Positions 17,884-32,000 of a stretch of 32,000 nucleotides of DNA are shown here, piece by piece. The stretch is from an uncultured Nitrospiraceae bacterium. Its GTDB lineage: Bacteria; Nitrospirota; Thermodesulfovibrionia; Thermodesulfovibrionales; UBA6898. Positions within the stretch are counted from its first letter, which is position 1, and the number at the start of each line of letters is the position of its first letter. The notes beneath the pieces were generated by a model. It ran no database searches. It was not told the origin of the DNA and worked only from the letters and a program-made list of their open reading frames with translations. The DNA lies in contig CAYXBA010000003.1 in NCBI GenBank assembly GCA_964463135.1, positions 228,012 to 260,011 of the forward strand, in the 5' to 3' direction. Both the position numbers and the translations under genes were made by a program.

Positions 17884-20130
17884 TCAAAGTTTCACTCTTC
17901 TCAGTCGGAGCGCGTTGCTGATAACCGAAACAGAACTGAAGCTCATGGCTGCAGCAGCAAATATCGGGCTGAGGAGGATGCCAAAAAAGGGATAGAGAAC
18001 ACCAGCGGCTATTGGCACACCAAGGGCATTGTACACAAAGGCAAAAAAGAGGTTCTGCTTGATATTCCGCATCGTTGCCCTGCTCAATCTTCTCGCCCGC
18101 ACGATACCCCGCAGGTCACCCTTCACCAGGGTAACGCCCGCACTCTGCATGGCCACGTCCGTCCCGGTACCCATAGCAATGCCGACATGCGCCTGTGCCA
18201 GGGCAGGCGCATCGTTGATGCCGTCACCGGCCATGGCAACGATCTTCCCCTGTGACTGCAGCTTCTTAACAATATCGGCCTTCTGGTCGGGCAGCACTTC
18301 GGCGATCACTTCATCTATGCCGAGTTTTTTACCCACCGCCTCTGCGGTAGTCTTACTGTCGCCGGTGATCATCACAACACGGATTCCTTCTTCATGAAGT
18401 TTCGCTATCGCCTCGGCAGTCGTTGCCTTTATCGGGTCCGCAACTCCGAGGAGGCCGGCAGCCTTTCCTTCCACAGCCACGAACATGGCGGTCTGACCCT
18501 CTTTGCGCATCTCCTCTGCTTTGTCCGGAAGTTCTCCCGGTGCAATCCCGAGTTCTTCGAGAAGCTTGCGGTTGCCAAGGGCTGTCTTCTTTCCGTCAAG
18601 AATGCCGGTTACCCCGCGTCCGGTAAGGGACTCAAAAGACTCAACCTTTAAAGGTGTAACGCCCCTTTCCTTTGCGCCTGCCACGATTGCTGCAGCCAGA
18701 GGGTGCTCACTCCCCATCTCGATGCTCGCAGCAAAGTGAAGCAGGGTCTTCTCCTCGAATCCGGATGCAGGGACCACATTCACCAGTTTCGGCTTTCCTT
18801 CGGTAAGGGTGCCGGTCTTGTCCGTCACCAGGGTGTCAACGGCCTTCATTACCTCGATAGCCTCTGCATTCTTAAAAAGGACCCCACCTGTTGCTCCCTT
18901 GCCCATCGCAACCATGATCGACATCGGCGTTGCCAGGCCGAGGGCGCAGGGGCAAGCAATGATCAGGACAGCTACCGCATTGACGAGTGCATACGCCATG
19001 CGCGGCTCAGGCCCGCTCCATGCCCAGACCGCAAAGGTGAGGAACGCGATACACACCACGAACTGGACAAAATAGCCGGCAACGATGTCTGCCAATTTCT
19101 GGATCGGTGCGCGGCTCCTCTGGGCCTCGGCAACCATATTGACAATCTGCGCCAGGAGCGTCTCGGCCCCGACCTTCTCTGCTTTCATTACCAGCGTGCC
19201 GGTACCGTTTACCGTAGCGCCGATCACCCGGTCCCCTGACTGCTTCATCACCGGGATCGGCTCACCTGAGATCATGGATTCATCCACGCTGCTTGATCCT
19301 TCAGTGACAGCGCCGTCAACAGGGACCTTTTCACCAGGCCGAACACGGAGGAGATCACCCGGCTTTATCTGTTCAAGAGGGACATCCTCTTCCTGACCGT
19401 TCATTATCCTACGCGCAGTCTTTGGGGCAAGCCCAAGCAGGGCTTTGATAGCTGCACCGGTCCTTGTTCTTGCCCTCAATTCCATCACCTGGCCGAGCAG
19501 CACGAGAGCGGTGATGACTGCTGCGGCTTCGAAATAGAGGCTGACTTCTCCCCCCTCACTGCGAAATGAAGATGGGAAAATACCGGGGAACAGAGCAGCC
19601 ACAACGCTATACAGATAGGCAACGCCGACGCCGATTCCGATAAGCGTAAACATGTTGGGGTTCCAGGTTATGACCGACTGCCAGCCCCTGACAAAGAAAG
19701 GCCATGCTCCCCAGAGCACAACAGGCGTTGCAAGGCCCAGTTCCAACCATTTACGTATTCCATGGGGCACCATGTCTATGATCGAGGAGAGGCCCGGAAT
19801 CATACGGCCCATGACGAGTATGACAAGCGGAATTGTGAGCACAACGCTGACCTTAAACCTTCGCGTCATGTCTATGAGTTCCGGATTTTTCTTCTCTTCA
19901 TCACTGACTGATCTTGGTTCGAGGGCCATGCCGCACTTTGGGCATGAGCCGGGGCTATCGCGTACGACTTCCGGATGCATCGGACAGGTCCACCCAGCCG
20001 TGGTCACACCCGCAGTCGGCGCAACCGGCTCAAGCGCCATGCCGCATTTAGGACAGAAGCTGGGACCAGCCTGTCTTACCTCAGGATGCATGGGACAGGT
20101 AAAGATGTCCTCTTCTTTTAACGTCTTCAT
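17884..20130 (-). CDS. copA: Cu(I)-translocating P1B-type ATPase
   Basis: 748 aa. Two N-terminal CPMHPEV...[10 protein letters not shown] metal-binding ribbons. Motifs: SGEP, TM CPC motif [32 protein letters not shown]. Confidence 0.95.
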
Positions 20131-20169
20131 TTCTTAATGTTCAACCGCATGACTCTCATACTGTCAGCG

Positions 20170-20412
20170 TTATAACTTATCCTTGTTGCTCAAAAGCTCA
20201 TCTTTAATCCGCTCGTATTCTTCTCTGGATATTTCACCTTTTGCATATCTCTTCTTCAGGATATCAAGCGCAGTTTCATCCTTTTTATCTCCCCCTGCCA
20301 TCCTCTTGATGAGATATGCAATGCAGACAATGACCAGCAGCCAGAAAATCACCATAAACGGCCCGCCAAAACCCATTCCCCAACCCCAACTATAATCTCC
20401 CCAATGCATCAT
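20170..20412 (-). CDS. SHOCT-domain small membrane protein
   Basis: 80 aa. One TM helix (FMVIFWLLVIVCIAYLI) and the C-terminal SHOCT motif ALDILKKRYAKGEISREEYERIKDEL. A strong RBS (GGAGG) precedes the ATG. Confidence 0.7.
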   Translation of the reverse strand: MMHWGDYSWGWGMGFGGPFMVIFWLLVIVCIAYLIKRMAGGDKKDETALDILKKRYAKGEISREEYERIKDELLSNKDKL

Positions 20413-20779
20413 AATTGCACCTCCCTGAATGAGATATCTCTCTTGTTCCCTGAGAGCTAGGAAGCCCTGATTTCATTATACTCCCCAATAGCTTTACCCC
20501 CTAATTGGCCCACCTCAGAGACAACAAATACCACAGCCGGTTCATATTTTCTTCATATCGATCACCTAAACTGTTTACATGAACATAAACATCAGACAAC
20601 CGGCAGGCAGATGGACACTGTTTACCCTGATCCTGGCAGCTGTTAGTATTCTCGGGCTTGCAGGTGCATGGCTGTATGCCGATGCCGTTGTCAGCAGCTG
20701 GACTGCAGCGAAGAGATCTGTTCCTGCAGAGTCCTGTCCGACACCGAACGCTGCGTACACGAAAAAGGAGAGAAAGACC

Positions 20780-21454
20780 ATGACAACCGCGGTTGAGAAA
20801 TCTATGATCCCGCTTATTGACAGGACATTGCCCGCAAAGACGGAGACAGCGACCTTCGGGCTTGGCTGATTCTGGGGGCCTGACTCCCGGTTCGGGAGTA
20901 TCTCAGGAGTGATCAGGACCCGCGTCGGTTACAGCGGCGGGACAAAGCCAAACCCGACCTACAAGAGTCTCGGCGATCATACCGAGACGATAGAGATCGA
21001 TTTTGACCCGACCAAGATCACGTATGAACAGCTGCTGGAGATCTTCTGGAGCAGCCACGATCCGGCAGGATGGTCATGGGCAAAGCAGTACAGGAATGTC
21101 ATCTTTTATCACAACAAGATGCAGAGACAGTCTGCAGAAAGAACACGCGACCGCATCGCTGCGCAGACCGGCAAAAAGGTCCGCACCGATATCGAACCTG
21201 CAGCAACATTCTACCTGGCCGAGGACTATCACCAGAAGTTCAGGCTTCAGCAGGACCCTCTGCTTGCTGCAGAATATGATGCCATCTATCCGGACATAAA
21301 GAGCTTTGTCGATTCTACGGCAGTCAGTCGGGTCAACGGATACCTCGGCGGATACGGCAGTTCCGCCGGACTGAACAGGGAGATCGATGGTCTCGGCCTT
21401 TCAGACGCAGCAAAAAAACACCTGCAAGATATTGTGGCCGGTTCAGGCCGGTGA
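20780..21454 (+). CDS. msrA: peptide-methionine (S)-S-oxide reductase MsrA with TGA (20867-20869) at the catalytic Cys position (candidate selenoprotein)
   Basis: The track splits it into 20579-20869 and 20909-21454, which share one frame. The joined reading is ...TATFGLG-[TGA]-FWGPDSRFGSISGVIRTRVGYSGGTKPNPTYKSLGDHTETIEIDFDP..., i.e. the MsrA GCFWG signature with TGA in place of Cys. I prefer the start at ATG 20780 because of AAGGAG 9 nt upstream. The alternative ATG 20579 would add a TM-like N-terminus (RWTLFTLILAAVSILGLAGAWLY). The start is unresolved. Confidence 0.8.
20883..20899 (+). promoter_or_regulatory. candidate bacterial SECIS hairpin for TGA 20867-20869
   Basis: ACUCCCG-GUU-CGGGAGU is a perfect 7-bp stem starting 13 nt after the UGA. 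The apical region contains G and U residues. Confidence 0.6.
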
Positions 21455-21551
21455 TTCATTGACCCTGACAGCAGATCTTTCTTCCTGTTGAAAATCGGTC
21501 CCTGCCTTCATCTATTCTCGTCATGGTATTATATACATATCTTTTTCGAGG

Positions 21552-22235
21552 ATGACCTTGGAACATTTAAGATGCTGGGAATATAAGAAGTGCGGCAGGC
21601 AGCCTGACGGACCCCTGGCCCAGGAATTGGGTGTCTGTCCTGCAGCAGCCCTCACGCAGACAGAGTGCTGGCTCATCCCCGGCACGCAATGCGATGGTGA
21701 GGTGCAATTAACGATCACAGAGAAATTTGATACATGCATTATCTGTGATTATTACAACAAGATGCAGGAGTACAATGCCAAACGGCCGCGGTCCCGCTTT
21801 TTTCTTTTCGGTCAATATCTCTGCAGCCAGGGTTTTATAACCGATGACCAGATAATCCAGGCACGCTCCCTGCAGCTCAGGCACAATCAGAAGATAGGAG
21901 TGATCGCCAAAAACAGGGGCATGCTGACGGACGCTCAGATCCAGAGGATACTGATCATACAGGAAGAGACGCTCAAGAAATTCGGGGATCTGGCTGTTGA
22001 AATGGGTTTTCTGAGCGAAGCACAGGTGAGCGAACTGGTCCTTGAACAGGAGGACAACTATCTCTTTTTCGGCGAAGCACTTCTGCAGCTCGGCGCGATC
22101 TCCCAGGAGAATATGTTCATCCAGCTAAAGGCATATAATGCGATGAAGATCGCGAAACAGCTTGAACAGCAGAAGCTGAGGAACCAGCTCTCGGGGAATT
22201 TACAGCTTCCGCCGGAGATCGAGGAAGAATCATAA
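21552..22235 (+). CDS. Cys-rich 'two-CW' N-terminal module fused to four MshEN/GspE-N-like 24-residue repeats
   Basis: 227 aa. The N-terminus RCWEYKKCGR..GVCPAA..TECWLIPGTQCDGE..DTCIICDYY has 7 Cys and two CW dipeptides. It is followed by four repeats of xxGxxhhxxGhhxxxxhxxxhxxQ: LFGQYLCSQGFITDDQIIQARSLQ, KIGVIAKNRGMLTDAQIQRILIIQ, KFGDLAVEMGFLSEAQVSELVLEQ and FFGEALLQLGAISQENMFIQLKAY. Confidence 0.6.
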   Translation: MTLEHLRCWEYKKCGRQPDGPLAQELGVCPAAALTQTECWLIPGTQCDGEVQLTITEKFDTCIICDYYNKMQEYNAKRPRSRFFLFGQYLCSQGFITDDQIIQARSLQLRHNQKIGVIAKNRGMLTDAQIQRILIIQEETLKKFGDLAVEMGFLSEAQVSELVLEQEDNYLFFGEALLQLGAISQENMFIQLKAYNAMKIAKQLEQQKLRNQLSGNLQLPPEIEEES

Positions 22236-22298
22236 GCCGGCAGTCTTCCGCTCAGCCCGGACGGACGAGCAGCGCAAGAACTCCTTACACAAACTGCA

Positions 22299-23429
22299 TC
22301 ATTGTCTATTCAGGAATTGCTGCACCTGATCTCTGATCGTCAGATGGTCTACAGGGATGTTCGGCACATCCTTATTGCCCGGTAGCGCGAGGGCATGAAT
22401 GAACTTTAACCCTTTTTTATCCGATGACATGGCAGCGATCAACTGCTCACGCGTCGATGCCTTCACGCTATGACCGATGCCGAAGCCGCGTGCTACCAGA
22501 TCGAGGTCAACGCATGAGCCGGTCAGGGTCTTCTGACTGCCTGTTGAACCGTATGAGCTGTTATCGATCGCAAGGATCGTCAGATTTTCTGGTGAACAAT
22601 GGGCAGCGGTCGCCAGCACACCGGGATTCATAAGCAGGCTGCCATCACCATCGATCACCACGACCTCTTTCTTTGAACAGAGACTGATGCCGAGCCCGAT
22701 CGGCGATGCCATGCCCATGCTTCCCAGCATATAGAAATTGGACGGCTGATGCTTCAGCGCATAGAGTTCCTTTGATGGCCAGCCAAGGTTGCTGACAACT
22801 ACCCTGTTCTCGAAAAAAGGTGCGGCAATCTCAAGCAGTTCATAGCGCGTAAACTGCGGGGGCACGATCTCCTGCCGTTTTTCAGGAAGCATGCAGGCTA
22901 TGGGCCGCTGGTCCAGAACTGCAGTGCTTTTTGCTGACGAACCTTCCCATATGGCCGGGCTCAGGAGAAAGGCATGTATCTTGTTCTTCTGATAGACCCG
23001 TTTCAGGCTGCGCGCGATGACAGGAAAATCTTCCCGGGAACTGACGATAGTATGCGAGATGCCTGCCCCTTTCAGGATCTTCGGCAGCCCTTTGCCCATC
23101 GGGAATTGGGCAGCGATCTTCTCCTGATAGATCCCGCGCTGACTCACGAACAATGCAAGCGGCAGTTCATAAAACCCGGTCAGGGACAGAAGCGCATTGA
23201 TCATATTGCCGATCCCTGAGCTCTGGATGAACAGGGCAGGCCGCCTGCCTGCAAGCGCTGCCCCGGCGGCAATGCCGACGCCCTCCTCTTCCCGCGTGAG
23301 AGGAATATGGAAGAATTCCGAGGCCACCATTTCGAGCAGGCTCTTTATCTTCTCGCACGGCAGGGATGCTGTAAAGTCGATGCCTGCTGCCTTGAGTATG
23401 GATATCAGTTCTTCTTCAGGATTCTGCAT
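22299..23429 (-). CDS. fused ThDP-dependent decarboxylase of the sulfopyruvate (ComDE) / phosphonopyruvate decarboxylase family
   Basis: 376 aa. The N-terminal half is ComD-like (AAGIDFTASLPCEKIKSLL, GVGIAAGAALAG). The C-terminal half carries the ThDP motif IDGDGSLLMNPG...ILAIDNSSYGSTG. Sulfo- versus phosphono-specificity cannot be told by eye. The neighbouring gene favours sulfopyruvate. Confidence 0.65.
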   Translation of the reverse strand: MQNPEEELISILKAAGIDFTASLPCEKIKSLLEMVASEFFHIPLTREEEGVGIAAGAALAGRRPALFIQSSGIGNMINALLSLTGFYELPLALFVSQRGIYQEKIAAQFPMGKGLPKILKGAGISHTIVSSREDFPVIARSLKRVYQKNKIHAFLLSPAIWEGSSAKSTAVLDQRPIACMLPEKRQEIVPPQFTRYELLEIAAPFFENRVVVSNLGWPSKELYALKHQPSNFYMLGSMGMASPIGLGISLCSKKEVVVIDGDGSLLMNPGVLATAAHCSPENLTILAIDNSSYGSTGSQKTLTGSCVDLDLVARGFGIGHSVKASTREQLIAAMSSDKKGLKFIHALALPGNKDVPNIPVDHLTIRDQVQQFLNRQ

Positions 23430-24658
23430 AGCAATGCCTCTATCTCCATATCCGTGATCTTCTTTGAAACAAACTCGGGTTCTACATTATACGTCTTTTT
23501 CTCCCTGCCGAGCGTAACTTCGCCGCCGCCGGTGATATTCAACAGGACCGTATCCGCACTGCTCACCGCCTTCTTCTGCACAGCCTGTCTCAGTGCACCG
23601 ACAGCAACACCCGCAGCAGCAACAATATCAATGCCCTCAAGGTTGCTGAACAGTTCCATGGATTCAAAGACTTCCCGGTTCGTAACGCCGTACATTGCAC
23701 CGCCGCAGGCATGCATCGCATCGAAGACGCCCCCCTTAACAGCGTATGCAGGATAACGGGTCGAAAGCACGCGCGTCGTTATCTGGCCGATCAGTTCAGG
23801 CCGCAGGTCTTCAGAAAAAAGCTCCCTGCTGCTTTTTTCCCATGCCTTTACCATCGGCGCGAACGGCAGGTTCTGCGCAAGATGGAGCTTCGGAAGGCGG
23901 CTGCCGAACCGGCCGTCACGCAGGAATCTTTCTGACATCTCCCACACGCCGACGCCTCCTGTGCCGCTGCCGACAGCCTGAAAATAATGGTCTGGCAGTT
24001 TCCTGATCTTTGAGACCGCCTCAAGGATCGTCGAGCCGAGCCCGTCCCGCTTTGCAATATTCTTCACCCCGCCCTCGAACGGGAAGCCCGAGATCGCCGC
24101 TATCCTCCTCGCCACGTCAATGGCATCGGAATAATCGCCGTCACCCACAGCAAGCGTAGGCACCATGGAGGAGCTTTCGAGATACCACATCTCTGTCAGG
24201 CACATCCGGGGCACAACGATCACCACAGGAAAACCTGAGACAACAGAAAGATGGGCAAAGGCGCGGGCAGTGTTCCCTGCCGATGCAACGATCAGCCCCT
24301 CGACCCTGTTCTCAGCCGCATTCTGCAGCACGATCGCTGCTTCAAACTCTTTGAAGGTGCAGGTCTGGAGCAGTGCTCCCCTTTCCGGCCAGAAGCCGTT
24401 AAAGGCGATATAGAGATCTTCAAGACCGAGGTGCCGCGCAAGCCACTCGGACTTGTACACCAGCGTGCCCGGCTGCTCAAAGGTCGGTGTATGCACAGGC
24501 AGCCAGTTGAACTTCCAGATGCCGCTGCCGCAGTCGTCACGAAACGCGTCTTTATATTTCGTGACCAGCAGGGAATCCGGGCAGTGCTCGCAGAACGCAC
24601 AATAGACATCGGTCAGTTCCTTGCCGCATCCTCTGCAGGTTATCGTAAAATGACTCAT
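23405..24658 (-). CDS. threonine-synthase-fold PLP enzyme, cysteate-synthase-like
   Basis: 417 aa. N-terminal 4-Cys ribbon CRGCG..CAFCEHC. PLP fold-type II core (TCTFKEFEA lysine context, VASAGNTARAFA, QAVGSGTGG). The cysteate synthase call rests on adjacency to the decarboxylase and on knowledge of the Methanosarcinales CoM route. A plain threonine synthase is not excluded. Confidence 0.5.
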   Translation of the reverse strand: MSHFTITCRGCGKELTDVYCAFCEHCPDSLLVTKYKDAFRDDCGSGIWKFNWLPVHTPTFEQPGTLVYKSEWLARHLGLEDLYIAFNGFWPERGALLQTCTFKEFEAAIVLQNAAENRVEGLIVASAGNTARAFAHLSVVSGFPVVIVVPRMCLTEMWYLESSSMVPTLAVGDGDYSDAIDVARRIAAISGFPFEGGVKNIAKRDGLGSTILEAVSKIRKLPDHYFQAVGSGTGGVGVWEMSERFLRDGRFGSRLPKLHLAQNLPFAPMVKAWEKSSRELFSEDLRPELIGQITTRVLSTRYPAYAVKGGVFDAMHACGGAMYGVTNREVFESMELFSNLEGIDIVAAAGVAVGALRQAVQKKAVSSADTVLLNITGGGEVTLGREKKTYNVEPEFVSKKITDMEIEALLCRILKKN

Positions 24659-25884
24659 TTGCCAACCCTCTCCACATGCTGTGCGAAAAGCTCCATGATG
24701 TCAACGATCGGGATCTTTTTGTCGTGGTCCTGCATTGCCTCGTTCACCTTGCCGTAGCAGGCCGGGCAGCTGAGGATCAGTTTGTCCGCCTTTTTGGCAA
24801 CAGCCTCATCGATCGCAAGCCTGCCGATGGCAATGGCATTTTCATGAAACACCTTCCTGACAGCGCCGCCTGCGCCGCAGCAGCGGGACTCGCTGCCATG
24901 CCGGTCGAACTCCAGCAGTTCCAGCCCCGGTATGGACCTGAGCACCTGCCTCGGCTCTTCAATGACACCAACGCCCCGGCTCAGATAGCAGGGGTCGTGA
25001 TAGATGATACGCTCCTTCAATTCTTTCTTTACCGTGATCTTCCGCTGCTGTAAAGCATCTGCAACAAACTGGGTCATATGCCGGATCTTGAACGGCAGTT
25101 CCTGTCCATAAAAGGCCGGCCAGTCCCTGGTCATGATATTCACACAGCAGGGACAGGAGCAGACAAGCATCTTCACGCCTTTCGCCTTGTACGCATTAAC
25201 GAGACGCTTTGTGAGGTCCTCAAGCATATCGTGCTGACCTGAAATGAAGAGCGGGAATCCGCAGCATACCTCCTCTTCCTCAGTAAGCATGGTGAACGGG
25301 TCTCCGATCGCATCAAGCACCAGCACATCCCCTCTCACCATCGGCTTTGCGCCGTACACGCCGGAGCAGCCGGCATAATAGGCGATCTCCGATCTCTCTG
25401 CCACCTTCACCTGTTCCGGGAACCACGGCTTGAAACGTTCTTCGACCGGGAAGTTATACGGATTGCCGCTCTTTTTTATCGCAGCAGGCATGTTCGTCAA
25501 TATCTCATAATCCACAAGACCCCGGTCGAACATCTCTTTTCTGAGATAGGGCCAGAGCCGCTGCGTAAAGATGCCGACAGCACATTTCTGGCCGCAGGCA
25601 CCGCAGGTCGTGCATTCAAAGACCGCCTTCGTGAAATCTTCGAGTACCGCTCTGTCGATCTCCTTTGGATTGAAGAAGCGTGCCTTCAGCCCCCCGGTTG
25701 CCTTGATGAATTCCTTGAATACCCTGATCTTCTCCGGCGTTGATATGGAAGGCCTGTGGGTAACTTCCTGGACAGGACAGTGCTGGAGGCACTCTCCGCA
25801 CTGGGTGCAGGCATCCAGTTCCAGCACCTGCATGGGTGTCAGGTTGTTGGTGAACGACCCTTTCTTATCTTTCATGGATGACAT
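24655..25884 (-). CDS. HdrD/DsrK-like Fe-S protein with CCG domains
   Basis: 409 aa. Two ferredoxin motifs (CTQCGECLQHCP, CTTCGACGQKC). Two Cys-rich CCG-type repeats (VCCGFPL with CSCPCC; RCCGAGG with SCPACY). ATGA overlap with the downstream PLP enzyme gene. Confidence 0.8.
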   Translation of the reverse strand: MSSMKDKKGSFTNNLTPMQVLELDACTQCGECLQHCPVQEVTHRPSISTPEKIRVFKEFIKATGGLKARFFNPKEIDRAVLEDFTKAVFECTTCGACGQKCAVGIFTQRLWPYLRKEMFDRGLVDYEILTNMPAAIKKSGNPYNFPVEERFKPWFPEQVKVAERSEIAYYAGCSGVYGAKPMVRGDVLVLDAIGDPFTMLTEEEEVCCGFPLFISGQHDMLEDLTKRLVNAYKAKGVKMLVCSCPCCVNIMTRDWPAFYGQELPFKIRHMTQFVADALQQRKITVKKELKERIIYHDPCYLSRGVGVIEEPRQVLRSIPGLELLEFDRHGSESRCCGAGGAVRKVFHENAIAIGRLAIDEAVAKKADKLILSCPACYGKVNEAMQDHDKKIPIVDIMELFAQHVERVGK

Positions 25885-26551
25885 ATTTCAGCTCCTCCCT
25901 TCTCCTGTTCGCTTCCAGATTCACAAAAGGCGCCGCGATAATATGTGTCGGAAGAAAAGGAAGGAGAAGGAGAAACAACCCCAAGTGAAAAAGAAACAGC
26001 ATGCTGTCCGGCAGGGGCTGGGGACTCAGGCCAAAGATGCCGAGAGAGAACTGCTTCACGCCGAGCACATCCGGCCGGTAAAACATTCTCATCGCCAGTC
26101 CGACAGAGCCGGTTAATAACAGGATGCCTGAAATAATATAGTTATAGGAAGAAGTATACCTGTCCTTTTTCTGCACTGTTCTCAAGGCTATGAGATATAC
26201 CAGGGAAAGGGGAAGCAGATATCCTGCGACGAGGCCGACCGGCTGCAGAAAGATCATGCAGTCAGGCAGCCGGGGGAAGAAAAATCTCATATGGCGAAGC
26301 GCCACCCAAAAAAGGGACATATGAAATACCCAGGACCCTGCCCAGAGGGCCCTGCTGGAACTGAAGATCCTCCGGAAAAAAAGAATGTCGAGGACAGTGG
26401 CGATATAGACCGAAGCAGGCACTCTGCGGAGAAAGACCGGATAGTGGCTTGCAGAGGCTGAAGCCCGGAGCGCCTGAATGCCCTGCCAGGCAAAGCGGAC
26501 CAGAAAATAGAGATAGGCGGCAATGGCAGCAAAAAAAAAGATCAATGACAT
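25865..26551 (-). CDS. NarI/DsrM/HdrE-like membrane dihaem cytochrome b
   Basis: 228 aa with about 5 TM helices. Paired His contexts WVFHMSLFWVALRH and LFLFHLGLF..LPTH resemble NarI-family haem ligation. Its 3' end overlaps the HdrD-like start by 20 nt. Confidence 0.6.
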   Translation of the reverse strand: MSLIFFFAAIAAYLYFLVRFAWQGIQALRASASASHYPVFLRRVPASVYIATVLDILFFRRIFSSSRALWAGSWVFHMSLFWVALRHMRFFFPRLPDCMIFLQPVGLVAGYLLPLSLVYLIALRTVQKKDRYTSSYNYIISGILLLTGSVGLAMRMFYRPDVLGVKQFSLGIFGLSPQPLPDSMLFLFHLGLFLLLLPFLPTHIIAAPFVNLEANRRREELKYVIHER

Positions 26552-26577
26552 AACCCTGCTTTTCGCAGCATTACACC

Positions 26578-27054
26578 TTATGCCCCATCAGGCATATAGC
26601 CTATCCTGAGACATCCCCAGTGACGGCCCTTGACCGCAATCGGCATCGCCATATCCATTGCAAGTTCACCGCCGGCAGCCGCCGGCCTCCGGAACGGCTG
26701 CGCCAGCAACCGGGTGGTCTTTGAGCCGCTGAGAGATACCGGATCGGTCATTTTGACCAAGGCCCTTGCAGGCATGATATGGGTCGGCATGTACCCGTTC
26801 CTGTCCATCGCAACCACATACAGCAGACGTCTGTCCTTCTGTGCCCACCGTTTCAGGACAGGCAGCACGTCCGCATCGAAGAACCTGTTTGAACGGGCTT
26901 TGAACTTGCCCTCTTCTGCAGTCTTACTATAGTTTTCATCAAAGAGGGAATCCATGTCGATCCTGGACTGCCGCACCGCCTCTTCAAGCAGGGCGGCAAA
27001 CTCGACGGCCAGGGTCTTAAGATACGCCTCCATCTCGGTAAATATCATAGACAT
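26578..27054 (-). CDS. cytoplasmic Cache/PAS-like domain protein (function unknown)
   Basis: 158 aa with no signal peptide or TM helix. LLYVVAMDRNGYMPTHIMP resembles the core strand-turn of Cache/PDC-type ligand-binding domains. RBS GGGAGGG upstream. Confidence 0.45.
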   Translation of the reverse strand: MSMIFTEMEAYLKTLAVEFAALLEEAVRQSRIDMDSLFDENYSKTAEEGKFKARSNRFFDADVLPVLKRWAQKDRRLLYVVAMDRNGYMPTHIMPARALVKMTDPVSLSGSKTTRLLAQPFRRPAAAGGELAMDMAMPIAVKGRHWGCLRIGYMPDGA

Positions 27055-27169
27055 AAGCCTGCCCTCCCAATATTGTTATTCCCATTATTCAAGATGCGCC
27101 TGCAGCCCGAACAGAATATCCTGCACTATATTTTCATCATATCATAATCCGGTAATGTCTTCTCCGTCC

Positions 27170-27502
27170 CTAATCCTTCTCCTCGATGAACGTCATGCCT
27201 ACCGGCCGCGGCAGACATGCCCCGGCTTCCACTTCGATCGCCTTCAGGATGGCCGACGGCACAGGACATGCCGCATGTTTCAGGTTCTTTGAGGCAGAAC
27301 GGTACACCGGGTTATGCAGTATTACCGAGAACGGGGCCCTGAACTCGAGGAACGCGATATCCTCTTCCATCTTCTTTACCATCCCGCATTCCGTCTCGAG
27401 ACTGATATGAAAGTTTCTGTCCTTGTCGCGCCGGACTCTCACAACGACCGTAAACCCGCATACCCCTGAGTTGACCTGAAGCGTAGTCAATGCACCTCCC
27501 AT
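27170..27502 (-). CDS. small conserved-looking Cys protein (unknown function)
   Basis: The track ORF starts at GTG 27583, immediately after a hairpin. I prefer ATG 27502 (MGGALTTLQVNSGVCGF...). Cys contexts: SGVCGF, LETECGM, KHAACPVPSAILKAIEVEAGACLP. Confidence 0.45.
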   Translation of the reverse strand: MGGALTTLQVNSGVCGFTVVVRVRRDKDRNFHISLETECGMVKKMEEDIAFLEFRAPFSVILHNPVYRSASKNLKHAACPVPSAILKAIEVEAGACLPRPVGMTFIEEKD

Positions 27503-27584
27503 GCTCTTCTGCGGGCCACGTGATGCAAGGGGGAGGGGATTTCCTGGAGGGGAAATGGTCCCTTGCATCCGCATGGCCCGCACA

Positions 27585-27610
27585 AGAGAGGCAGAAGATA
27601 CTGCCTCTCT
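27585..27610 (-). terminator. perfect 10-bp hairpin just downstream of the RACo-type gene (attenuator, terminator or stability element)
   Basis: AGAGAGGCAG (27585-27594) and CTGCCTCTCT (27601-27610) with a 6-nt loop. It lies 8 nt after the minus-strand stop at 27619. Only 2 U residues follow, so it is not a canonical terminator. Confidence 0.4.
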
Positions 27611-27618
27611 TCCTGAGC

Positions 27619-29610
27619 TCAGCCTTTAATGGATGCCGCTATCGGCGCCTTCTGCTCTTCAAGCAAAGCCTTCAGATTCGGGAACTTGTCCTTCATATGC
27701 GGAATATGCATGGCCATCATAAATTCCTTTTCGAAGGCAGGCTCTGTAGCGATCTCGACAAACTCGACCCAGCGGGCGCGCTCATCAGCCTCGATGCGTT
27801 TGCCCCTGTTCAGCAGGGTCATGCGTGAACCGTCACCCGCCGCGTTGCCGACCACAACGACCTTCTCTATCGGCACATCAGGGAAAAGACCCAGGGCAAG
27901 CGAGGCCTCGCGGTCTATGTGGCTGCCGAATGCACCGGCAAGCTCAACACGGTCAAGCTTGGTGACGCCCATCTTCTGCATCATCAGCTTCACACCGGCA
28001 TAGAGAGCGCCCTTTGCCAGCTGGAGCGCCCTGACATCTCCCTGCGTCACGGTAATGTCCTGATTGATCGAGGTCTGGTCTGCCCATGCAAGGACGTATT
28101 CAGGCTTGCCTTCCTCGTCCTTGCGTATCCGATTCGTATTTGCGTCAGTCACGAACTTGCCGGTCTTGTCGATGATACCTGCCTTGAACATCTCTGCGAT
28201 CACGTCAATGATCGCTGATCCGCAGATGCCCTTTGCATCGATCTTGCCCTCGATATGCGTATGCCAGTCAGCCTTGCCGATCACCTTGTACTGGGGCTCC
28301 TTGGTGGCAGGGTCGATCTGCACCTTCTCGATCGCACCCGGTGCGGCACGCATGCCGAACTTGATCTGCGCTCCTTCGAACGCTGGACCGGTGGCACAGG
28401 AGGTCGAGCATACCCTGTCCTTGTTGCCGAGCAGGAGCTCTCCATTAGTGCCGATATCAATGATCAGTACCATGTCGTCCTGGAAATACTGTTCCCGGGC
28501 GATCAGCACGCCGACATTATCGGCGCCGACAAATCCTGCCTCGATCGGCAGCACATGGATAAACGAACCGGGGTTGATCTTAAGCCCCAGATCGCGGGCC
28601 TTGATATCGAGCGACTTCTGTACCGCAGGAATGAACGGCGAGCGGCCGATATAGACCGGGTTCAGACCGAGGAAGATATGGTGCATTGCCGTATTGAAAA
28701 CTATCGTCAGGTCATCGATCGCAAAGCCGGGGTTCGGCCCGTCCTTTCTGACCTCGCTCACGACCTTATTTATGATCTCATTCAGGCCGGTGATGATCGC
28801 ATCCTGCATGGTCTTCAGGCCTTCAGGGTTTGACATGGCATACGTGATCCGGGACATGACATCTTCGCCGTACGGGACCTGGGGGTTCATCATCGATTCG
28901 GTATTGATCACCTTGCCGGTCGACAGGTCGCAGAGATAACCGACACAGGTGGTCGTCCCGACATCAACTGCCAGACCGTAGCAGACATCCACATGACCGG
29001 CCTCGACCTTCACGATCTCCTTGTCCTGCCAGACCGTGGCCGTTATGGTCCATTCTCCCTGGCGCAGCGCGTCCTGCAGCCCGAGCAGAACCTCGAAATC
29101 GAACTTCAGGTCCTTCAGGCCATAGGTCTCTTCAAGCGCCCTGATCACCCGCTCATAATCGCCGGTCGTCATGTCATGCAGGGTCGGCGGTGTCAGCGTA
29201 AGCGGATATTTTTTGACTGCAGGATCGAGCGCAATGGTCAGTTCACTGGCAGCTTTTCTGACCACCTGCTTTCCTGCCCGCGAACGCTCAGGAACAAAGA
29301 CCTTCAGGTCGCCATGGATGTGGCATGAACAGGCCAGCCGCACGCCCGGCCCGTCCTCAGGCTTGATATGCTTCAGTTCGTCAGCACCAGCCTCGGGCGG
29401 GATGATATGGGACATGCCGGACTCGAGATTGTCCTTTTCGAAATATCCCTCCTCAATCCGCACCTTGCATTTTCCGCATACTTTTTTATCACCGCAGAGG
29501 GCTTCGAGGTCAACGCCCAGAAGCTGTGCAGCCTTGAGGATCGTGGTCCCCTCTTCTATTTCTCCCCGCCTGCCTGCAGGCTGGAAAATTACCTTGAATT
29601 TACGACTCAT
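27619..29610 (-). CDS. RACo-type reductive activator of corrinoid proteins (2Fe-2S ferredoxin domain + ASKHA ATPase)
   Basis: 663 aa. The N-terminal plant-type ferredoxin motif is CGDKKVCGKC...RLACSC. The large C-terminal ASKHA/DUF4445-like body contains LAVDVGTTTC, IIDIGTNGE, CATGPAFEG and NAAGDG. Strong RBS AAGGAGGA. Confidence 0.85.
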   Translation of the reverse strand: MSRKFKVIFQPAGRRGEIEEGTTILKAAQLLGVDLEALCGDKKVCGKCKVRIEEGYFEKDNLESGMSHIIPPEAGADELKHIKPEDGPGVRLACSCHIHGDLKVFVPERSRAGKQVVRKAASELTIALDPAVKKYPLTLTPPTLHDMTTGDYERVIRALEETYGLKDLKFDFEVLLGLQDALRQGEWTITATVWQDKEIVKVEAGHVDVCYGLAVDVGTTTCVGYLCDLSTGKVINTESMMNPQVPYGEDVMSRITYAMSNPEGLKTMQDAIITGLNEIINKVVSEVRKDGPNPGFAIDDLTIVFNTAMHHIFLGLNPVYIGRSPFIPAVQKSLDIKARDLGLKINPGSFIHVLPIEAGFVGADNVGVLIAREQYFQDDMVLIIDIGTNGELLLGNKDRVCSTSCATGPAFEGAQIKFGMRAAPGAIEKVQIDPATKEPQYKVIGKADWHTHIEGKIDAKGICGSAIIDVIAEMFKAGIIDKTGKFVTDANTNRIRKDEEGKPEYVLAWADQTSINQDITVTQGDVRALQLAKGALYAGVKLMMQKMGVTKLDRVELAGAFGSHIDREASLALGLFPDVPIEKVVVVGNAAGDGSRMTLLNRGKRIEADERARWVEFVEIATEPAFEKEFMMAMHIPHMKDKFPNLKALLEEQKAPIAASIKG

Positions 29611-29764
29611 CTATATATCCTCCTTGATTTCGGTAACCACAAGAATACGTTACTATTTGCAAAATCCCTCCTATCCTCCCTTTGTCAAAGAGAGGAATAA
29701 TCCCCTTTTTAGCAACCAACAGTAGGTGCCTTATGCAAGAGGGGTGAGGGAGATACCTGCTTTT

Positions 29765-29792
29765 TACTGCCTAATGCTTACTGCCTACTGCT
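29765..29792. repeat. four tandem heptamers spanning a stop codon
   Basis: TACTGCC TAATGCT TACTGCC TACTGCT (29765-29792). On the minus-strand mRNA this reads AGCAGUA GGCAGUA AGCAUUA GGCAGUA. The QueG-like stop (29778-29780) lies inside the array. Confidence 0.5.
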
Positions 29793-30440
29793 CCCGACTC
29801 TCTCTGTCTTCTTCCTGGTCCGCGAATACGGGCAGACCGTAACGCAGAATCCGCAGTTCGGCTTGCCGTCAAGGGCCTGGCGGCTGCTCTTGAGCGCCGC
29901 ACACTTTTCGTATGCAACGAGCTTCAGCCGGGGATTGCGTATGGACCAGTGGCCGCCTTTGACCGCTCCTGAAGGGCAGTGCGTAACACATAGGACACAG
30001 TCTCCACACTCCGACTCCCTCACCGGCTCGTCCGCATCAAGAGGGGCATTGGTCAGCACCGTTGCCCAGCAGAGCCGCGATCCATACTGCCGGTTGATCA
30101 GAAGCCCGTTCTTGCCGACCCATCCGAGACCGGAGCAGGTCGCTGCCGTCTTATGGCAGAAGAGCTTGTACAGCCTGGTTATCAGCTTGTCCTTCTGCCG
30201 GTCCGAGTCAGGGGGGATCGAAAGGTTCCGATACCCCCGTGCACTCAGCCATGCCACGGTCAGCCCCTGCAGTCGTGCCAGAAGACGGATCGTTTCCCTG
30301 TTCAGGTTCCTGTTCACGGCAATCGCGATGCCGCGGTTCAGATGGACGATCTCTTTTGACAGGGCCTCGGTCACATCGCCGACACCGACCAGCGTTGCTC
30401 CTTCGCTCTTCAGGTACTGCTTGAGCGGGTCTGCATTCAC
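29778..30440 (-). CDS. short QueG/reductive-dehalogenase-like 2x[4Fe-4S] protein
   Basis: 220 aa. GLGWVGKNGLLINRQYGSRLCWATVLTNAPL matches the QueG-type core. Cluster motifs CGDCVLCVTHCP and CGFCVTVCPY. It is much shorter than full-length epoxyqueuosine reductase. Confidence 0.6.
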   Translation of the reverse strand: MNADPLKQYLKSEGATLVGVGDVTEALSKEIVHLNRGIAIAVNRNLNRETIRLLARLQGLTVAWLSARGYRNLSIPPDSDRQKDKLITRLYKLFCHKTAATCSGLGWVGKNGLLINRQYGSRLCWATVLTNAPLDADEPVRESECGDCVLCVTHCPSGAVKGGHWSIRNPRLKLVAYEKCAALKSSRQALDGKPNCGFCVTVCPYSRTRKKTERVGSSRQ

Positions 30441-30443
30441 CGG

Positions 30444-31130
30444 TTACTGCTTTGCAGCTTTTTCATCCCTCAGCTTCTTCAGGAACGCAACCATCTTGAT
30501 CGCCTCTTTCAGTGCGTTGCTGGCGTCTTCAGCATACCCGTCAGCACCCCACTTGTCTGCGAGGTCCTTGGATGTGGGGGCTCCGCCGATCATGATCATG
30601 CAGTTGGGGTTCTTGGCCTTGATCTTTTCGATGACGGTCGGCATGCCGACCATGGATGTGGTCATCATGGCAGACAGGCAGACCAGGTCAGAGTCTGTCT
30701 TGAGCTGCTCATCCACGAACTTGTCCAGGGGCACGTCGCGGCCGAGGTCATAGACATTAAAGCCCGCGACATCGAACATCATCTTGACGAGGTTCTTGCC
30801 GATATCATGGACATCGCCTTCGACCGTGCCGATAACGACCGAGCCCTTCAGGCCGAGGTCCATCTGCTTGCAGTGCGGCTTCAGTATGTCGAGTCCTGCG
30901 TACAGGGCGTCAGCACACATCAGGATCTCGGGAACAAAATATTCCTGTGCCTCGAAAAGCCTGCCGACCTCTTCCATGCCGGAGACGAGGCCGTCGAAGA
31001 TCGCCTCGTTCGCATCAAGGCCTGCTTCAAGGGCCTCGTTCGCGCCTTCCCTACATGCGTCCTCGTCATACTGGATAACGCCGTTCCTCAACTTCTCAAG
31101 GATCTCTTTCTTTCTCGCTTCATCTGCCAT
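30444..31130 (-). CDS. corrinoid (cobalamin-binding) methyl-carrier protein, MtaC/MtbC-like
   Basis: 228 aa. An N-terminal helical cap is followed by a B12-binding Rossmann domain with GDVHDIGKN (DxHxxG), LSAMMTT and MIGGAP. Confidence 0.9.
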   Translation of the reverse strand: MADEARKKEILEKLRNGVIQYDEDACREGANEALEAGLDANEAIFDGLVSGMEEVGRLFEAQEYFVPEILMCADALYAGLDILKPHCKQMDLGLKGSVVIGTVEGDVHDIGKNLVKMMFDVAGFNVYDLGRDVPLDKFVDEQLKTDSDLVCLSAMMTTSMVGMPTVIEKIKAKNPNCMIMIGGAPTSKDLADKWGADGYAEDASNALKEAIKMVAFLKKLRDEKAAKQ

Positions 31131-32000
31131 TATTTTTTACCTCCATATGAGATCGTTTCTTCCATCATTGCCTTCATATTCTGGGGCGGCACAGTCGGCC
31201 AGATATCGCAGCCCGGCCATACTGCACTGACACCGTCGTCGATGCATTTCCTGACAGCCTGGCGCACTACGTCCTCGCTTCCCGAGACCAGCACATTGTA
31301 CGCATCCATGTTGCCGAAGATAAGGGCATCAGGCCCGAGTTTCTTCCTTGACTCTGCAACATCGTTCTTCTGCTCGACGCTGATCGCCGTAGGTCCTGCC
31401 TCCATCATCGACGTCACGATATCGTTCGTCTTTCCGCAGATATGGAGCACGGAATAGACAGATATCCCCTTCATCACCTTCTGGAGCGGCGGCAGGATGA
31501 GGCTCTTGAACACCCGAGGGCTGAGCACATCGCTCGTTGCGCCCATCTCCCGCACGGTTATGAAATCCACACCTGCCTTCTCGTATTCCTTTGCCGTAAG
31601 GATAATGGCATCTGCGCAGAGATCGAGCAGCTTGGCGACCTTGTCCGCCTTCTTGAACGAAAGCTTCAGCAGGTCGTTCAGCTCCATGATCTGGCCGGCC
31701 AGGGTAAAGGGGCCGAGCACATACGAGCCGACGACAACATCGTTGCCTATATCGGCCTTCAGAAGCCTGATCGCCTCGCGCATCAGCGGGATCCTTCCCT
31801 TCTCGGAAAAGCCGTCAGGCAGCTTGATGGTATCCATCTCCGCCTCGTTATGGATGAGCTTTTCCTTGATCGTGGGGTACAGGATGCCCTCTGCCTGCGG
31901 GTACACATTGATGACGCAGCCCATTGCCTCTGCCTCAACACAGAGGTCGACCGGTACTACGCCGCATTCATACCCGAACAGCTTGTACGTGGTTGCAGCG
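31130..32000 (-). CDS. URO-D-family methylcobamide methyltransferase (MtaA/MtbA/CmuA-like MT2); 5' end outside window
   Basis: The track starts it at Met 31924, but the frame stays open to the window edge (...YKLFGYECGVVPVDLCVEAEAMGCVINVYPQ). Zn-site context LHICGKT and later WPGCDIWP. Its stop shares one nt with the corrinoid protein start (TAATG). Confidence 0.8.
   Translation of the reverse strand, partial: AATTYKLFGYECGVVPVDLCVEAEAMGCVINVYPQAEGILYPTIKEKLIHNEAEMDTIKLPDGFSEKGRIPLMREAIRLLKADIGNDVVVGSYVLGPFTLAGQIMELNDLLKLSFKKADKVAKLLDLCADAIILTAKEYEKAGVDFITVREMGATSDVLSPRVFKSLILPPLQKVMKGISVYSVLHICGKTNDIVTSMMEAGPTAISVEQKNDVAESRKKLGPDALIFGNMDAYNVLVSGSEDVVRQAVRKCIDDGVSAVWPGCDIWPTVPPQNMKAMMEETISYGGKK

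Follow-up and report, generated by a model that had tools for sequence, protein, structure and literature searches.

A conserved gene cluster of Nitrospirota joining cysteate synthase, corrinoid methyl transfer and an HdrD-like module: a possible coenzyme M-type system in anaerobic bacteria

A stretch of 32,000 nucleotides from an uncultured Nitrospiraceae bacterium (contig CAYXBA010000003.1 of assembly GCA_964463135.1, positions 228,012 to 260,011; the whole stretch is here called the window) ends in an array of ten minus-strand genes (22299-32000) for corrinoid methyl transfer, an HdrD-like module and sulfonate synthesis. Judged by its relatives, this array is the 3' part of a cluster of about 13 genes, of which the window holds the 3' two-thirds, conserved in Thermodesulfovibrionales-type Nitrospirota. 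The reading that we put forward tentatively, at a little less than an even chance, is that the cluster combines its own synthesis of a coenzyme M (CoM)-type mercaptosulfonate with corrinoid-based methyl exchange between thiols and tetrahydrofolate (THF) and with quinone-linked thiol/disulfide chemistry. The components are all of kinds already known, and the novelty lies in their combination and in the host. A previous reading of the sequence alone, made without database searches, had considered such a system to be undescribed, and a literature search is consistent with this, having returned no description of cysteate synthase or ComDE in Nitrospirota, nor of this combination of genes.

All ten open reading frames (ORFs) lie where the sequence-only reading had placed them, and its gene labels agree broadly with Pfam and NCBIfam domain calls. 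In the direction of transcription, the array begins with an MtaA/MtbA-type zinc corrinoid:thiol methyltransferase (31130-32000; Pfam URO-D, 199 bits), here URO-D#2, whose gene is truncated at the window end with about 55 N-terminal residues absent. There follow a corrinoid (B12-binding) methyl carrier protein (30444-31130; B12-binding and B12-binding_2 domains), a QueG/reductive-dehalogenase-like 2x[4Fe-4S] protein (29778-30440; Fer4_16 domain) and a RACo-type ATP-dependent reductive activase of corrinoid proteins (27619-29610) with Fer2, RACo_linker, Raco_middle and RACo_C_ter domains. Next come the small cysteine-containing protein DUF6951, with a predicted IscU/SufU/SufE-like fold (27170-27583; PF22263, 94.5 bits), and a stand-alone Cache/PAS-like sensor domain of 158 residues (26578-27054; sCache_3_2, E 0.011). 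The last four genes encode a membrane b-type cytochrome-like subunit resembling NarI, DsrM and HdrE (25865-26551; DsrM model, 52 bits), an HdrD-type iron-sulfur protein (24655-25884; Fer4_8 and two CCG domains), a cysteate synthase (CysS, 23405-24658; TIGR03844 equivalog), which would convert phosphoserine and sulfite to cysteate, and a fused ComDE-type sulfopyruvate decarboxylase (22299-23429; TIGR03845/TIGR03846), which would yield sulfoacetaldehyde.

The tight junctions claimed for the array were recovered as well, three of them by reading the DNA and two from the ORF coordinates. The start codon of the corrinoid-protein gene overlaps the stop codon of the MtaA-like gene in TAATG at 31128-31132, three nucleotides separate the corrinoid and QueG-like genes (TAA-ccg-GTG, 30441-30443) and the HdrD-like gene and CysS overlap in ATGA at 24655-24658. 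The overlap is 20 nucleotides between the genes for cytochrome b and the HdrD-like protein (25865-25884) and 25 nucleotides between CysS and ComDE (23405-23429), so that all three junctions from cytochrome b to ComDE are overlapping ones. The true start of DUF6951 is probably an internal ATG near 27502, since orthologues measure 104-108 residues. Simple promoter and terminator scans gave signals no higher than the shuffled expectation, so the wider gaps within the array cannot be assigned as operon boundaries, and a scan of 20000-32000 for Rfam families such as cobalamin riboswitches likewise found none.

Conservation of the array was assessed by tblastn: the ten window proteins were aligned with 80 genome loci, each from a species representative and located through its CysS. 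All of these relatives are metagenome-assembled genomes (MAGs), with no cultured strain among them, and synteny was counted in the 50 loci, one per species, having at least 8.8 kb upstream of CysS. The genes for the MtaA-like, corrinoid, QueG-like, RACo, DUF6951 and HdrD proteins all share the strand of CysS in 48 of these loci; ComDE likewise lies on it in 48 and the cytochrome b gene in 44. The order in relatives is MtaA-like, corrinoid, QueG-like, RACo, DUF6951, cytochrome b, HdrD-like, CysS and ComDE, and across the conserved loci CysS identity falls to 65%. A reverse test, starting from metagenome contigs anchored on RACo, found CysS and ComDE in 15 of the 16 having enough downstream sequence. 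Since 48/50 loci and 15/16 contigs keep the array, the arrangement is far beyond chance; on this synteny, chance adjacency and unrelated operons are rejected. Family models, together with synteny across at least 48 species, strongly support the identities of the genes and a functional link between them.

The few departures from the common arrangement are informative. In L043 the methyltransferase genes abut CysS-ComDE directly, with neither cytochrome b nor HdrD between them. The run cytochrome b-HdrD-CysS-ComDE is retained in L027 and L055, which have no methyltransferase genes within the sequence available, and L065 has CysS-ComDE alone. One contig each represents L133, which has no HdrD, and L136, where the cluster stops after cytochrome b. 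Together these exceptions place CysS-ComDE as the hub that joins both other modules.

The closest CysS homologues are named Nitrospirae or Nitrospirota, Thermodesulfovibrionales and Candidatus Sulfobium, and the 80 loci all come from Nitrospirota-type MAGs, apart from two labelled as a 'Betaproteobacteria' MAG and 'Bacterium BMS3Bbin05'. The cluster occurs in anaerobic Nitrospirota of the sulfate-reducer type, which are widespread and live in groundwater, rice paddies, wetlands and the subsurface. A bacterial host had been argued for from genes elsewhere in the window, and LolA, a GGDEF protein and a selenocysteine-containing MsrA confirm a bacterial source that uses selenocysteine. Relatives combine dissimilatory reduction of sulfate with the whole Wood-Ljungdahl pathway (PMC5812927).

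The closest relatives (L003-L005, with 86-88% CysS identity and 94-95% MtaA-like identity) have three further genes directly upstream of the MtaA-like gene. These encode a second zinc His-Cys-Cys URO-D methyltransferase (URO-D#1, 26% identical to URO-D#2), a highly conserved AhpD/CMD-family protein with the motif YCSPRCI(I/V)HV and an MtrH-family methyltransferase. The last of these scores 318 bits with NF002142 (cut-off 287) and also matches MtgA, a THF methyltransferase, at 155 bits. Each of the three is present in 25-26 of the 26 RACo-anchored contigs having enough upstream sequence, the MtrH-family gene in 25 of these 26 upstream-complete loci. Apparent absences of the AhpD-like gene are due to antisense shadow ORFs from crude gene calling. 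An in-frame selenocysteine in that gene was considered and rejected, tblastn showing an intact, Cys-containing gene in every locus apparently lacking it. In about 11 relatives a FolD gene is inserted between DUF6951 and cytochrome b. Exact-protein matches to window genes lay only on contigs of 1.6-5.9 kb ending at the same genes, none reaching past 32000, and the upstream genes of the source genome are accordingly predicted from those of relatives with 86-88% CysS identity.

The upstream genes bear on two earlier proposals. A substrate-specific first methyltransferase (MT1) had been expected past 32000, and the relatives show no MT1 of the MtaB or MttB type upstream of the MtaA-like gene. Transfer of the methyl group to THF had been offered as an alternative to thiol methylation. 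The link to THF is upheld, and its status as a rival falls away: with an MtrH-family gene beyond the edge and FolD inside the cluster in some relatives, THF transfer is part of the same system.

Among the sulfonate-synthesis genes, the pyridoxal phosphate enzyme had been read as a likely cysteate synthase, threonine synthase being the identity that would have undone this. It scores 450.5 bits against the TIGR03844 cysteate-synthase equivalog (cut-off 324.9) and 34 bits against thrC (cut-off 167); the former identity is thereby supported and ThrC is ruled out. The alpha domain of ComDE likewise exceeds its cut-off (TIGR03845, 184.8 bits against 148). A phosphonopyruvate decarboxylase of phosphonate biosynthesis is ruled out by a score of 203 against a cut-off of 312.5, and no PEP (phosphoenolpyruvate) mutase family was found among the window ORFs scanned, all of which agrees with the sulfopyruvate type proposed for the decarboxylase.

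When CysS was used to search 1.84 billion representative proteins, the Nitrospirota enzymes collapsed to one cluster. The next relatives, at 40-50% identity, have names including Methanomassiliicoccus, Methanospirillum, Thermoplasmatota, Phycisphaerae and a gammaproteobacterial MAG. Some of them are fused to PAPS reductase and one to a 2-hydroxyacid dehydrogenase domain (PF02826/PF00389). We read the first fusion as a probable means of sulfite supply and the second as SerA-like, for supply of phosphoserine, so that both would be consistent with the assigned cysteate synthase reaction.

Several distant loci show what accompanies CysS-ComDE in other lineages. In L083-L085 the order is CysS, ComDE and an SsuA-fold protein, then a 169-residue protein, an AhpD/CMD protein and DUF6951, with no methyltransferase or Fe-S enzyme in the sequence in view. 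Three of these proteins are orthologous to those of Nitrospirota, at 53% identity for the CMD protein (with the same CSPRC motif), 44% for DUF6951 and 44-46% for the SsuA-fold protein. DUF6951 thus travels with CysS-ComDE in a distant lineage without methyltransferases. In the archaeal-looking L090, the run CysS-ComDE-SsuA-fold protein has overlapping stops and starts and a ThiS-like gene close by. A third lineage, L091, has a His-Cys-Cys URO-D and RACo about 3.5 kb (within 4 kb) from CysS-ComDE.

The SsuA-fold (sulfonate-binding) protein, absent from the window, is encoded near CysS-ComDE in 13 of 45 Nitrospirota loci (L017, L023, L026, L027, L029, L030, L045, L051, L059, L065, L072, L081 and L082), on the opposite strand downstream of ComDE. 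In two loci its gene is translationally coupled to ComDE (L083:12360-13265 and L090:12374-13324), with no adjacent ABC permease or ATPase. The SsuA-fold proteins have, on reading, no obvious N-terminal signal peptide, and the protein may carry out an uncharacterised step of the sulfonate pathway. Directly downstream of ComDE and on the opposite strand, 23 of 45 loci encode a conserved protein of about 200 residues (for example L059:12384-13004), which matches no family and whose C-terminus resembles a ribbon-helix-helix DNA-binding tail. In two distant lineages, a lipoate-protein ligase gene and a small gene of 90-97 codons lie shortly upstream of CysS: in L090 (5279-7144), where radical-SAM (S-adenosylmethionine) genes flank the pair, and on the contig P0135; this could be a coincidence or reflect a lipoyl-dependent redox link.

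As to the nature of the METHYLTRANSFERASES, the MtaA-like protein aligns with Methanosarcina MtaA (PDB 4AY7, E 2.5e-44; full-length orthologue L003:3141-4169). That orthologue exceeds the cut-off of the PRK06252 'methylcobalamin:CoM methyltransferase' subfamily (252.9 against 244) and falls just short of that of TIGR01463 (228.3 against 235.4). The window copy of URO-D#2 has the zinc ligands HICG and PGCDI, and His-Cys-Cys is invariant in URO-D#2 (43/43) and in URO-D#1 (12/12). The MT2-like enzyme thus keeps the zinc site of thiol methyltransferases. This outcome favours the earlier reading, which a grouping with THF-dependent enzymes would have undone, as do those for the decarboxylase and the pyridoxal phosphate enzyme. 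His-Cys-Cys ligands mark S- and Se-methyltransferases, O-demethylases having carboxylates in place of Cys (Kountz & Balskus preprint, PMC10418091). Both URO-D paralogues being His-Cys-Cys, with no carboxylate-substituted zinc site, an O-demethylase of the Odm/Mtv/Mto kind is ruled out. The same preprint describes bacterial type 1 mlp clusters, in which several MtaA-like enzymes accompany a corrinoid protein and an activase, and the role that it proposes for them is in methyl-sulfur or methyl-selenium metabolism.

The corrinoid protein carries the motif DVHDIG and scores 204.5 bits against TIGR02370, just below the cut-off of 215.3. RACo scores 476 bits against the AcsV model (cut-off 800). Its neighbour, the QueG-like protein, has two CxxCxxCxxxCP motifs, matches QueG in the PDB (5D6S, E 1e-11, residues 99-207) and is under the cut-off of both the QueG model (62.7 bits) and the reductive dehalogenase model (49.8 bits). 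Its gene adjoins that for RACo in 48 of 50 loci, and its product is probably an electron input to RACo. Fusion of the two is not a general feature, being seen as a single ORF in L062 only; a 764-residue ORF in L043 is apparently an upstream extension arising from longest-ORF calling.

The HdrD-like protein has two ferredoxin motifs and two complete CCG motifs, and matches to HdrB in the PDB span its CCG region. Its length and domain order match those that we take to be typical of HdrD. The best match in NCBIfam is TfrB (177 bits), a subunit of the thiol:fumarate reductase that uses CoM and coenzyme B (CoB). By comparison, it scores 82.4 against the DsrK model (cut-off 400) and the membrane subunit 52.3 against that of DsrM (cut-off 300), far from either equivalog cut-off, so that DsrMK identity is ruled out and the DsrMK-type module raised earlier as an alternative finds no support. 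The cytochrome b candidate is hydrophobic, with histidine pairs His77/His87 and His189/His203, and has no Pfam or PDB match. The previous label of a dihaem-b protein is a prediction from the NarI/DsrM-like similarity of 52 bits and from the His spacing. A NarI-family protein occupies the cytochrome b position in some relatives. The Hdr-like module is duplicated within the cluster in L023, L030 and L041, where a second pair of membrane subunit (NarI-family) and HdrD-like (CCG) protein lies beside the first, between RACo/DUF6951 and CysS.

The Cache-like label given previously to the 158-residue protein is in part sustained. A low-confidence model (predicted local distance difference test, pLDDT, 67) matches only Cache/PAS sensors, while the Pfam E-value of 0.011 leaves the family assignment marginal. 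The protein is 55-59% identical to the C-terminal domain of methyl-accepting chemotaxis proteins in L010, L011, L014, L021 and L048, and a chemotaxis protein of about 517 residues with such a C-terminus is inserted in about six relatives; the domain is present in only 7 of the 50 loci. For both the Cache-like protein and DUF6951, homologue searches found close relatives only, with names all Nitrospirota except one 'Betaproteobacteria' MAG.

DUF6951 is of particular interest as a candidate for sulfur insertion. Four of its residues are invariant (C15, C39, H76 and C79), in an order and spacing that resemble what we take to be the ligands of IscU. An AlphaFold (AF2) model built on 41 homologues has a pLDDT of 91, and the top Foldseek matches in the PDB are nearly all ISCU, IscU, SufU or CsdE/SufE (probability up to 1.0, E 0.01-1, template-modelling score about 0.5). 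Proteins of the IscU, SufU and SufE families take persulfide sulfur from cysteine desulfurases. On this modelled structure, DUF6951 as an IscU/SufE-like sulfur acceptor is a lead, and an attractive one because the single step that the pathway lacks, between sulfoacetaldehyde and a thiol, would have to insert sulfur and reduce the product. In known pathways the last CoM step is ascribed to MMP16/ComF, with the COG1900 protein L-ASST as a backup, and an abiotic reaction with sulfide is possible (PMC11844431, PMC12068725, PMC4045070).

These observations can be assembled into a mechanism. CysS, a housekeeping aminotransferase and the fused ComDE would produce sulfoacetaldehyde, which would be converted by sulfur transfer and reduction to a mercaptosulfonate, most simply CoM. 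Candidates for the sulfur insertion are DUF6951, the AhpD-like Cys protein, possibly HdrD/cytochrome b and, where present, the SsuA-fold protein; alternatively, a COG1900 enzyme encoded elsewhere in the genome might catalyse the final step, or it might proceed abiotically in a sulfidic cytoplasm. RACo and its QueG-like Fe-S partner would hold the corrinoid protein in the Co(I) state. Because a single corrinoid protein would be served by two MtaA/MtbA-type zinc enzymes and the MtrH-family pterin methyltransferase, methyl groups would move between THF on one side and thiols or thioethers on the other. These could be small methyl sulfides or selenides, the mercaptosulfonate or both, and a connection to CO2 may run through FolD and the Wood-Ljungdahl pathway of relatives (PMC5812927). 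The HdrD-like protein and cytochrome b would tie a thiol/disulfide couple to the menaquinone pool, and a metabolite of the pathway may be sensed by the Cache-like domain, which some relatives have as part of a chemoreceptor. CoM as the thiol, a disulfide as the substrate of the HdrD-like enzyme and its recycling at the membrane are what we infer from the gene content.

The direction of methyl flow is likewise a matter of inference. We lean slightly towards demethylation feeding the Wood-Ljungdahl/THF pathway over the reverse, on account of the chemoreceptor in the cluster, FolD and the analogy to mlp clusters. By analogy with Mtr, transfer from methyl-THF to a thiol would be thermodynamically favoured, at an estimated -30 kJ/mol or so.

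A number of results weigh against this integrated scheme. By the same Mtr analogy, demethylation of a thioether into THF would be uphill by roughly +30 kJ/mol, and the soluble enzymes of the cluster have no obvious energy coupling. To our knowledge MCR and CoB are not to be expected in Nitrospirota, and nothing known would therefore generate a heterodisulfide. The related CCG proteins GlpC and LdhH are plain electron-transfer subunits, and the disulfide-reductase function of the HdrD-like protein is accordingly one predicted from its architecture and context. Among the model scores, the beta domain of ComDE reaches 214.2 bits against TIGR03846 (cut-off 221.5), 7 bits short, and the full-length MtaA-like orthologue misses the MtaA and MtbA equivalog cut-offs (240.6 against 400 and 169 against 600). 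The COG1900 family, to which the MMP16/ComF CoM synthase belongs, has no match in the cluster or context genes scanned. The Foldseek E-values behind the IscU-like assignment of DUF6951 are weak, a profile comparison with the PDB gives no sequence-level similarity to IscU, and the pairwise score against an approximate IscU sequence is under the shuffled mean. Sulfoacetaldehyde, moreover, has other possible fates, given the other contexts of CysS homologues: in L094 CysS lies beside a PLP (pyridoxal phosphate) decarboxylase and a SAM methyltransferase, a context that we read as probably taurine-type, and in L092 beside an aminotransferase. The contigs L133 and L136, with no HdrD and with the cluster ending after cytochrome b, respectively, also count against the scheme.

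A bolder form of the scheme can be stated, which as a whole we regard as unlikely. Genuine CoM would be made by the archaeal phosphoserine route and completed by a novel, MMP16-independent synthase (DUF6951 and the AhpD-like protein, possibly with quinol electrons via HdrD/cytochrome b). It would take part in an MCR-independent cycle of methyl-CoM and CoM disulfide linking methylated sulfur, THF and menaquinone, a soluble bacterial counterpart of the Mtr/MtaA/HdrDE core.

Of the alternatives to the integrated scheme, the one that fares best, which we consider rather improbable and still deserving of serious attention, is that the cluster does two separate jobs, its parts being co-located only as sulfur metabolism. 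The methyltransferases would demethylate methyl sulfides or selenides (dimethyl sulfide, methanethiol or dimethylselenide) to THF, and cytochrome b-HdrD-CysS-ComDE would make or process a sulfonate (such as taurine, isethionate or sulfoacetate) or act as a sink for sulfite. His-Cys-Cys URO-Ds, a corrinoid protein and an activase fit the logic of mlp clusters, and one Mlp methylates both selenide and sulfide in vitro (PMC10418091). The host uses selenocysteine, as the in-frame TGA of its MsrA indicates, and MtrH with FolD makes a complete route to THF without CoM. CysS has other partners elsewhere, including the taurine-looking context just mentioned; L027, L055 and L065 have CysS-ComDE without nearby methyltransferase genes, and L136 is the reverse case. 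Independent functions do not, however, readily account for the same-strand adjacency, which 48/50 species and 15/16 contigs of the reverse test retain even where CysS identity has fallen to 65%, nor for the fact that the CMD and DUF6951 genes, companions of CysS-ComDE elsewhere, are interleaved among the methyltransferase genes. The direct junction of methyltransferases and CysS-ComDE in L043 and the repetition of their proximity in another lineage (L091) also argue for a connection, and the cluster contains no aminotransferase, reductase or decarboxylase that would yield taurine or isethionate.

Sulfonate catabolism is a good deal less probable again. Imported cysteate or sulfopyruvate-type sulfonates would be converted by ComDE to sulfoacetaldehyde, the CysS homologue desulfonating by beta-replacement, sulfite being respired and HdrD/cytochrome b providing the link to quinone. 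ComDE-type enzymes do act in sulfolactate degradation in some bacteria. Such a role would suit the SsuA-family protein, encoded close to the cluster in 13/45 loci and translationally coupled with ComDE in L083 and L090, as well as an in-cluster chemoreceptor, which suggests an environmental substrate, and hosts that are sulfite or sulfate reducers (PMC5812927). Yet neither sulfoacetaldehyde acetyltransferase (Xsc) nor a glycyl-radical sulfolyase family was found among the cluster genes scanned, no transporter permease or ATPase lies beside the SsuA-like genes of L083 and L090 and the proteins show no obvious signal peptide on reading. CysS, furthermore, passes a biosynthetic equivalog and has relatives fused to enzymes of sulfite supply and to a 2-hydroxyacid dehydrogenase, and catabolism leaves the methyltransferases unexplained.

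Least credible is that the HdrD-like protein and cytochrome b form a DsrMK-type module that reduces the trisulfide of DsrC, or a general electron-transfer module serving another enzyme, in either case with no connection to a low-molecular-weight thiol and amid several independent operons: weak similarity to DsrK and DsrM, the several wider intergenic gaps and the frequency of CCG proteins in sulfate reducers are outweighed by scores of 82/400 and 52/300, a best match to the CoM/CoB-dependent TfrB, the gene overlaps from cytochrome b to ComDE and the 48/50 synteny.

When set beside known systems, the cluster resembles the methylotrophic module of Methanosarcina (MtaA/MtbA, cognate corrinoid protein, RamA, HdrDE and the type-2, or phosphoserine, CoM pathway of cysteate synthase, ComDE and MMP16/ComF). 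Common to both are a zinc His-Cys-Cys URO-D aligning with 4AY7, a DxHxxG corrinoid protein, an activase that depends on ATP, an HdrD-type protein beside a membrane subunit (here a putative cytochrome b) and adjacent genes for cysteate synthase and a fused ComDE-type enzyme. Here, in contrast, the host is bacterial with MCR and CoB not expected, there is no MT1 of the MtaB/MttB type and no MMP16 in the cluster, a soluble MtrH-family pterin methyltransferase replaces membrane Mtr, the activase is of the RACo and not the RamA type, the quinone is presumably menaquinone instead of methanophenazine and the MtaA/MtbA equivalog cut-offs are unmet.

The type 1 mlp clusters of anaerobic bacteria and Methanococcales likewise have at least two MtaA-like His-Cys-Cys URO-Ds, a corrinoid protein and a RACE/RACo activase, in anaerobic hosts that use selenocysteine. 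Representative clusters are without a THF methyltransferase, whereas an MtrH-family gene is present here in 25/26 upstream-complete loci. The bacterial MtaA-like clusters of PMC10418091 have no Hdr, CysS/ComDE or THF methyltransferase; in the main text of that work cysteate, Nitrospirota or Thermodesulfovibrio and MtrH never occur, and heterodisulfide reductase appears in the introduction and references only. The present cluster is thus related to mlp clusters in logic and distinct from them in content.

The corrinoid methyl transfer systems that deliver to THF or tetrahydromethanopterin (MtgABC, Odm/Mtv and the archaeal MtoABCD) share with it an MT1, a corrinoid protein, an MtrH-family MT2 and RACo feeding a one-carbon pterin pathway. 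They differ in that the MT1-type enzymes here have thiol-type zinc ligands and are not of the MttB family, and in that the cluster adds a second thiol methyltransferase and the Hdr-like and sulfonate-synthesis genes. The alkene/epoxide pathway of Xanthobacter autotrophicus (xcbABCDE) offers a precedent for a bacterial metabolic cluster with its own CoM biosynthesis genes (PMC9457059, PMC11844431). That pathway, unlike the one proposed here, is aerobic, makes CoM from PEP by a ComA and aspartase-family route, employs CoM to carry C3 units and involves neither corrinoid nor Hdr. DsrMK/Hme-type complexes, finally, resemble the cluster in combining a NarI-like membrane cytochrome b (putative here) with a cytoplasmic CCG protein in a sulfate-reducer-type host; here the DsrK/DsrM scores are far under the cut-off, and translational coupling is with CysS-ComDE and not with dsr genes.

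Reviews of CoM biosynthesis recognize three routes, two of them archaeal and the third, that of Xanthobacter, bacterial, and the cofactor itself is described in methane- and alkane-metabolizing archaea and in bacterial alkene metabolism (PMC11844431, PMC12068725). The cluster brings CoM-precursor genes of archaeal type together with MtaA-type thiol methyltransferases and an HdrDE-like module, which suggests that a methanogen-style cofactor may serve some anaerobic bacteria, made by them and used in a metabolism that yields no methane. If this is true, CoM-type chemistry would extend to abundant anaerobic bacteria without MCR, and the cluster would be a candidate genetic basis for the anaerobic turnover or formation of methanethiol and dimethyl sulfide by sulfate reducers. 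Bacterial sources of CoM for CoM-auxotrophic methanogens would be suggested, and DUF6951, the AhpD-like protein and the cytoplasmic SsuA-fold protein would become new candidates for the debated last step of CoM synthesis. The finding would also bear on the spread of 'methanogenesis' modules between domains. Should the methyltransferases and sulfonate genes instead do two separate jobs, the cluster would still represent a new and well-delimited methyl-sulfur:THF system.

Other parts of the window merit brief mention. In the gene for methionine sulfoxide reductase A (MsrA; 20759-21454, plus strand), an in-frame TGA falls precisely on the codon of the catalytic residue (FGLG*FWGP), and the product carries a 'selenoprotein MsrA helical domain', which together identify a selenocysteine enzyme; the mechanical ORF list begins this gene too late, at 20909. 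Convergent with ComDE is a gene for a 227-residue protein (21552-22235, plus strand) with an N-terminal two-CW Cys-rich domain (NF045718, 66 bits) and two MshE-type motifs for binding cyclic di-GMP (NF053729). It is a possible regulator, and among the relatives only the closest (L001, L003 and L004) have it at this position. A 683-residue protein with NapH/MauN-like Fer4_5 repeats (15101-17152, minus strand) lies between two ORFs without family match (14281-15099 and 17149-17721), its gene being just downstream of that for a heavy-metal (copper-type) P-type ATPase (17884-20130). At the other end of the window, a plus-strand run of genes (1435-8260), two for ketoacyl synthases, three for radical-SAM proteins that bind B12 and one for a membrane protein with DUF2062, adjoins LolA and a BadF/BcrAD-type ATPase, and looks like an unusual cluster for lipid or alkyl-chain modification, unrelated to the array.

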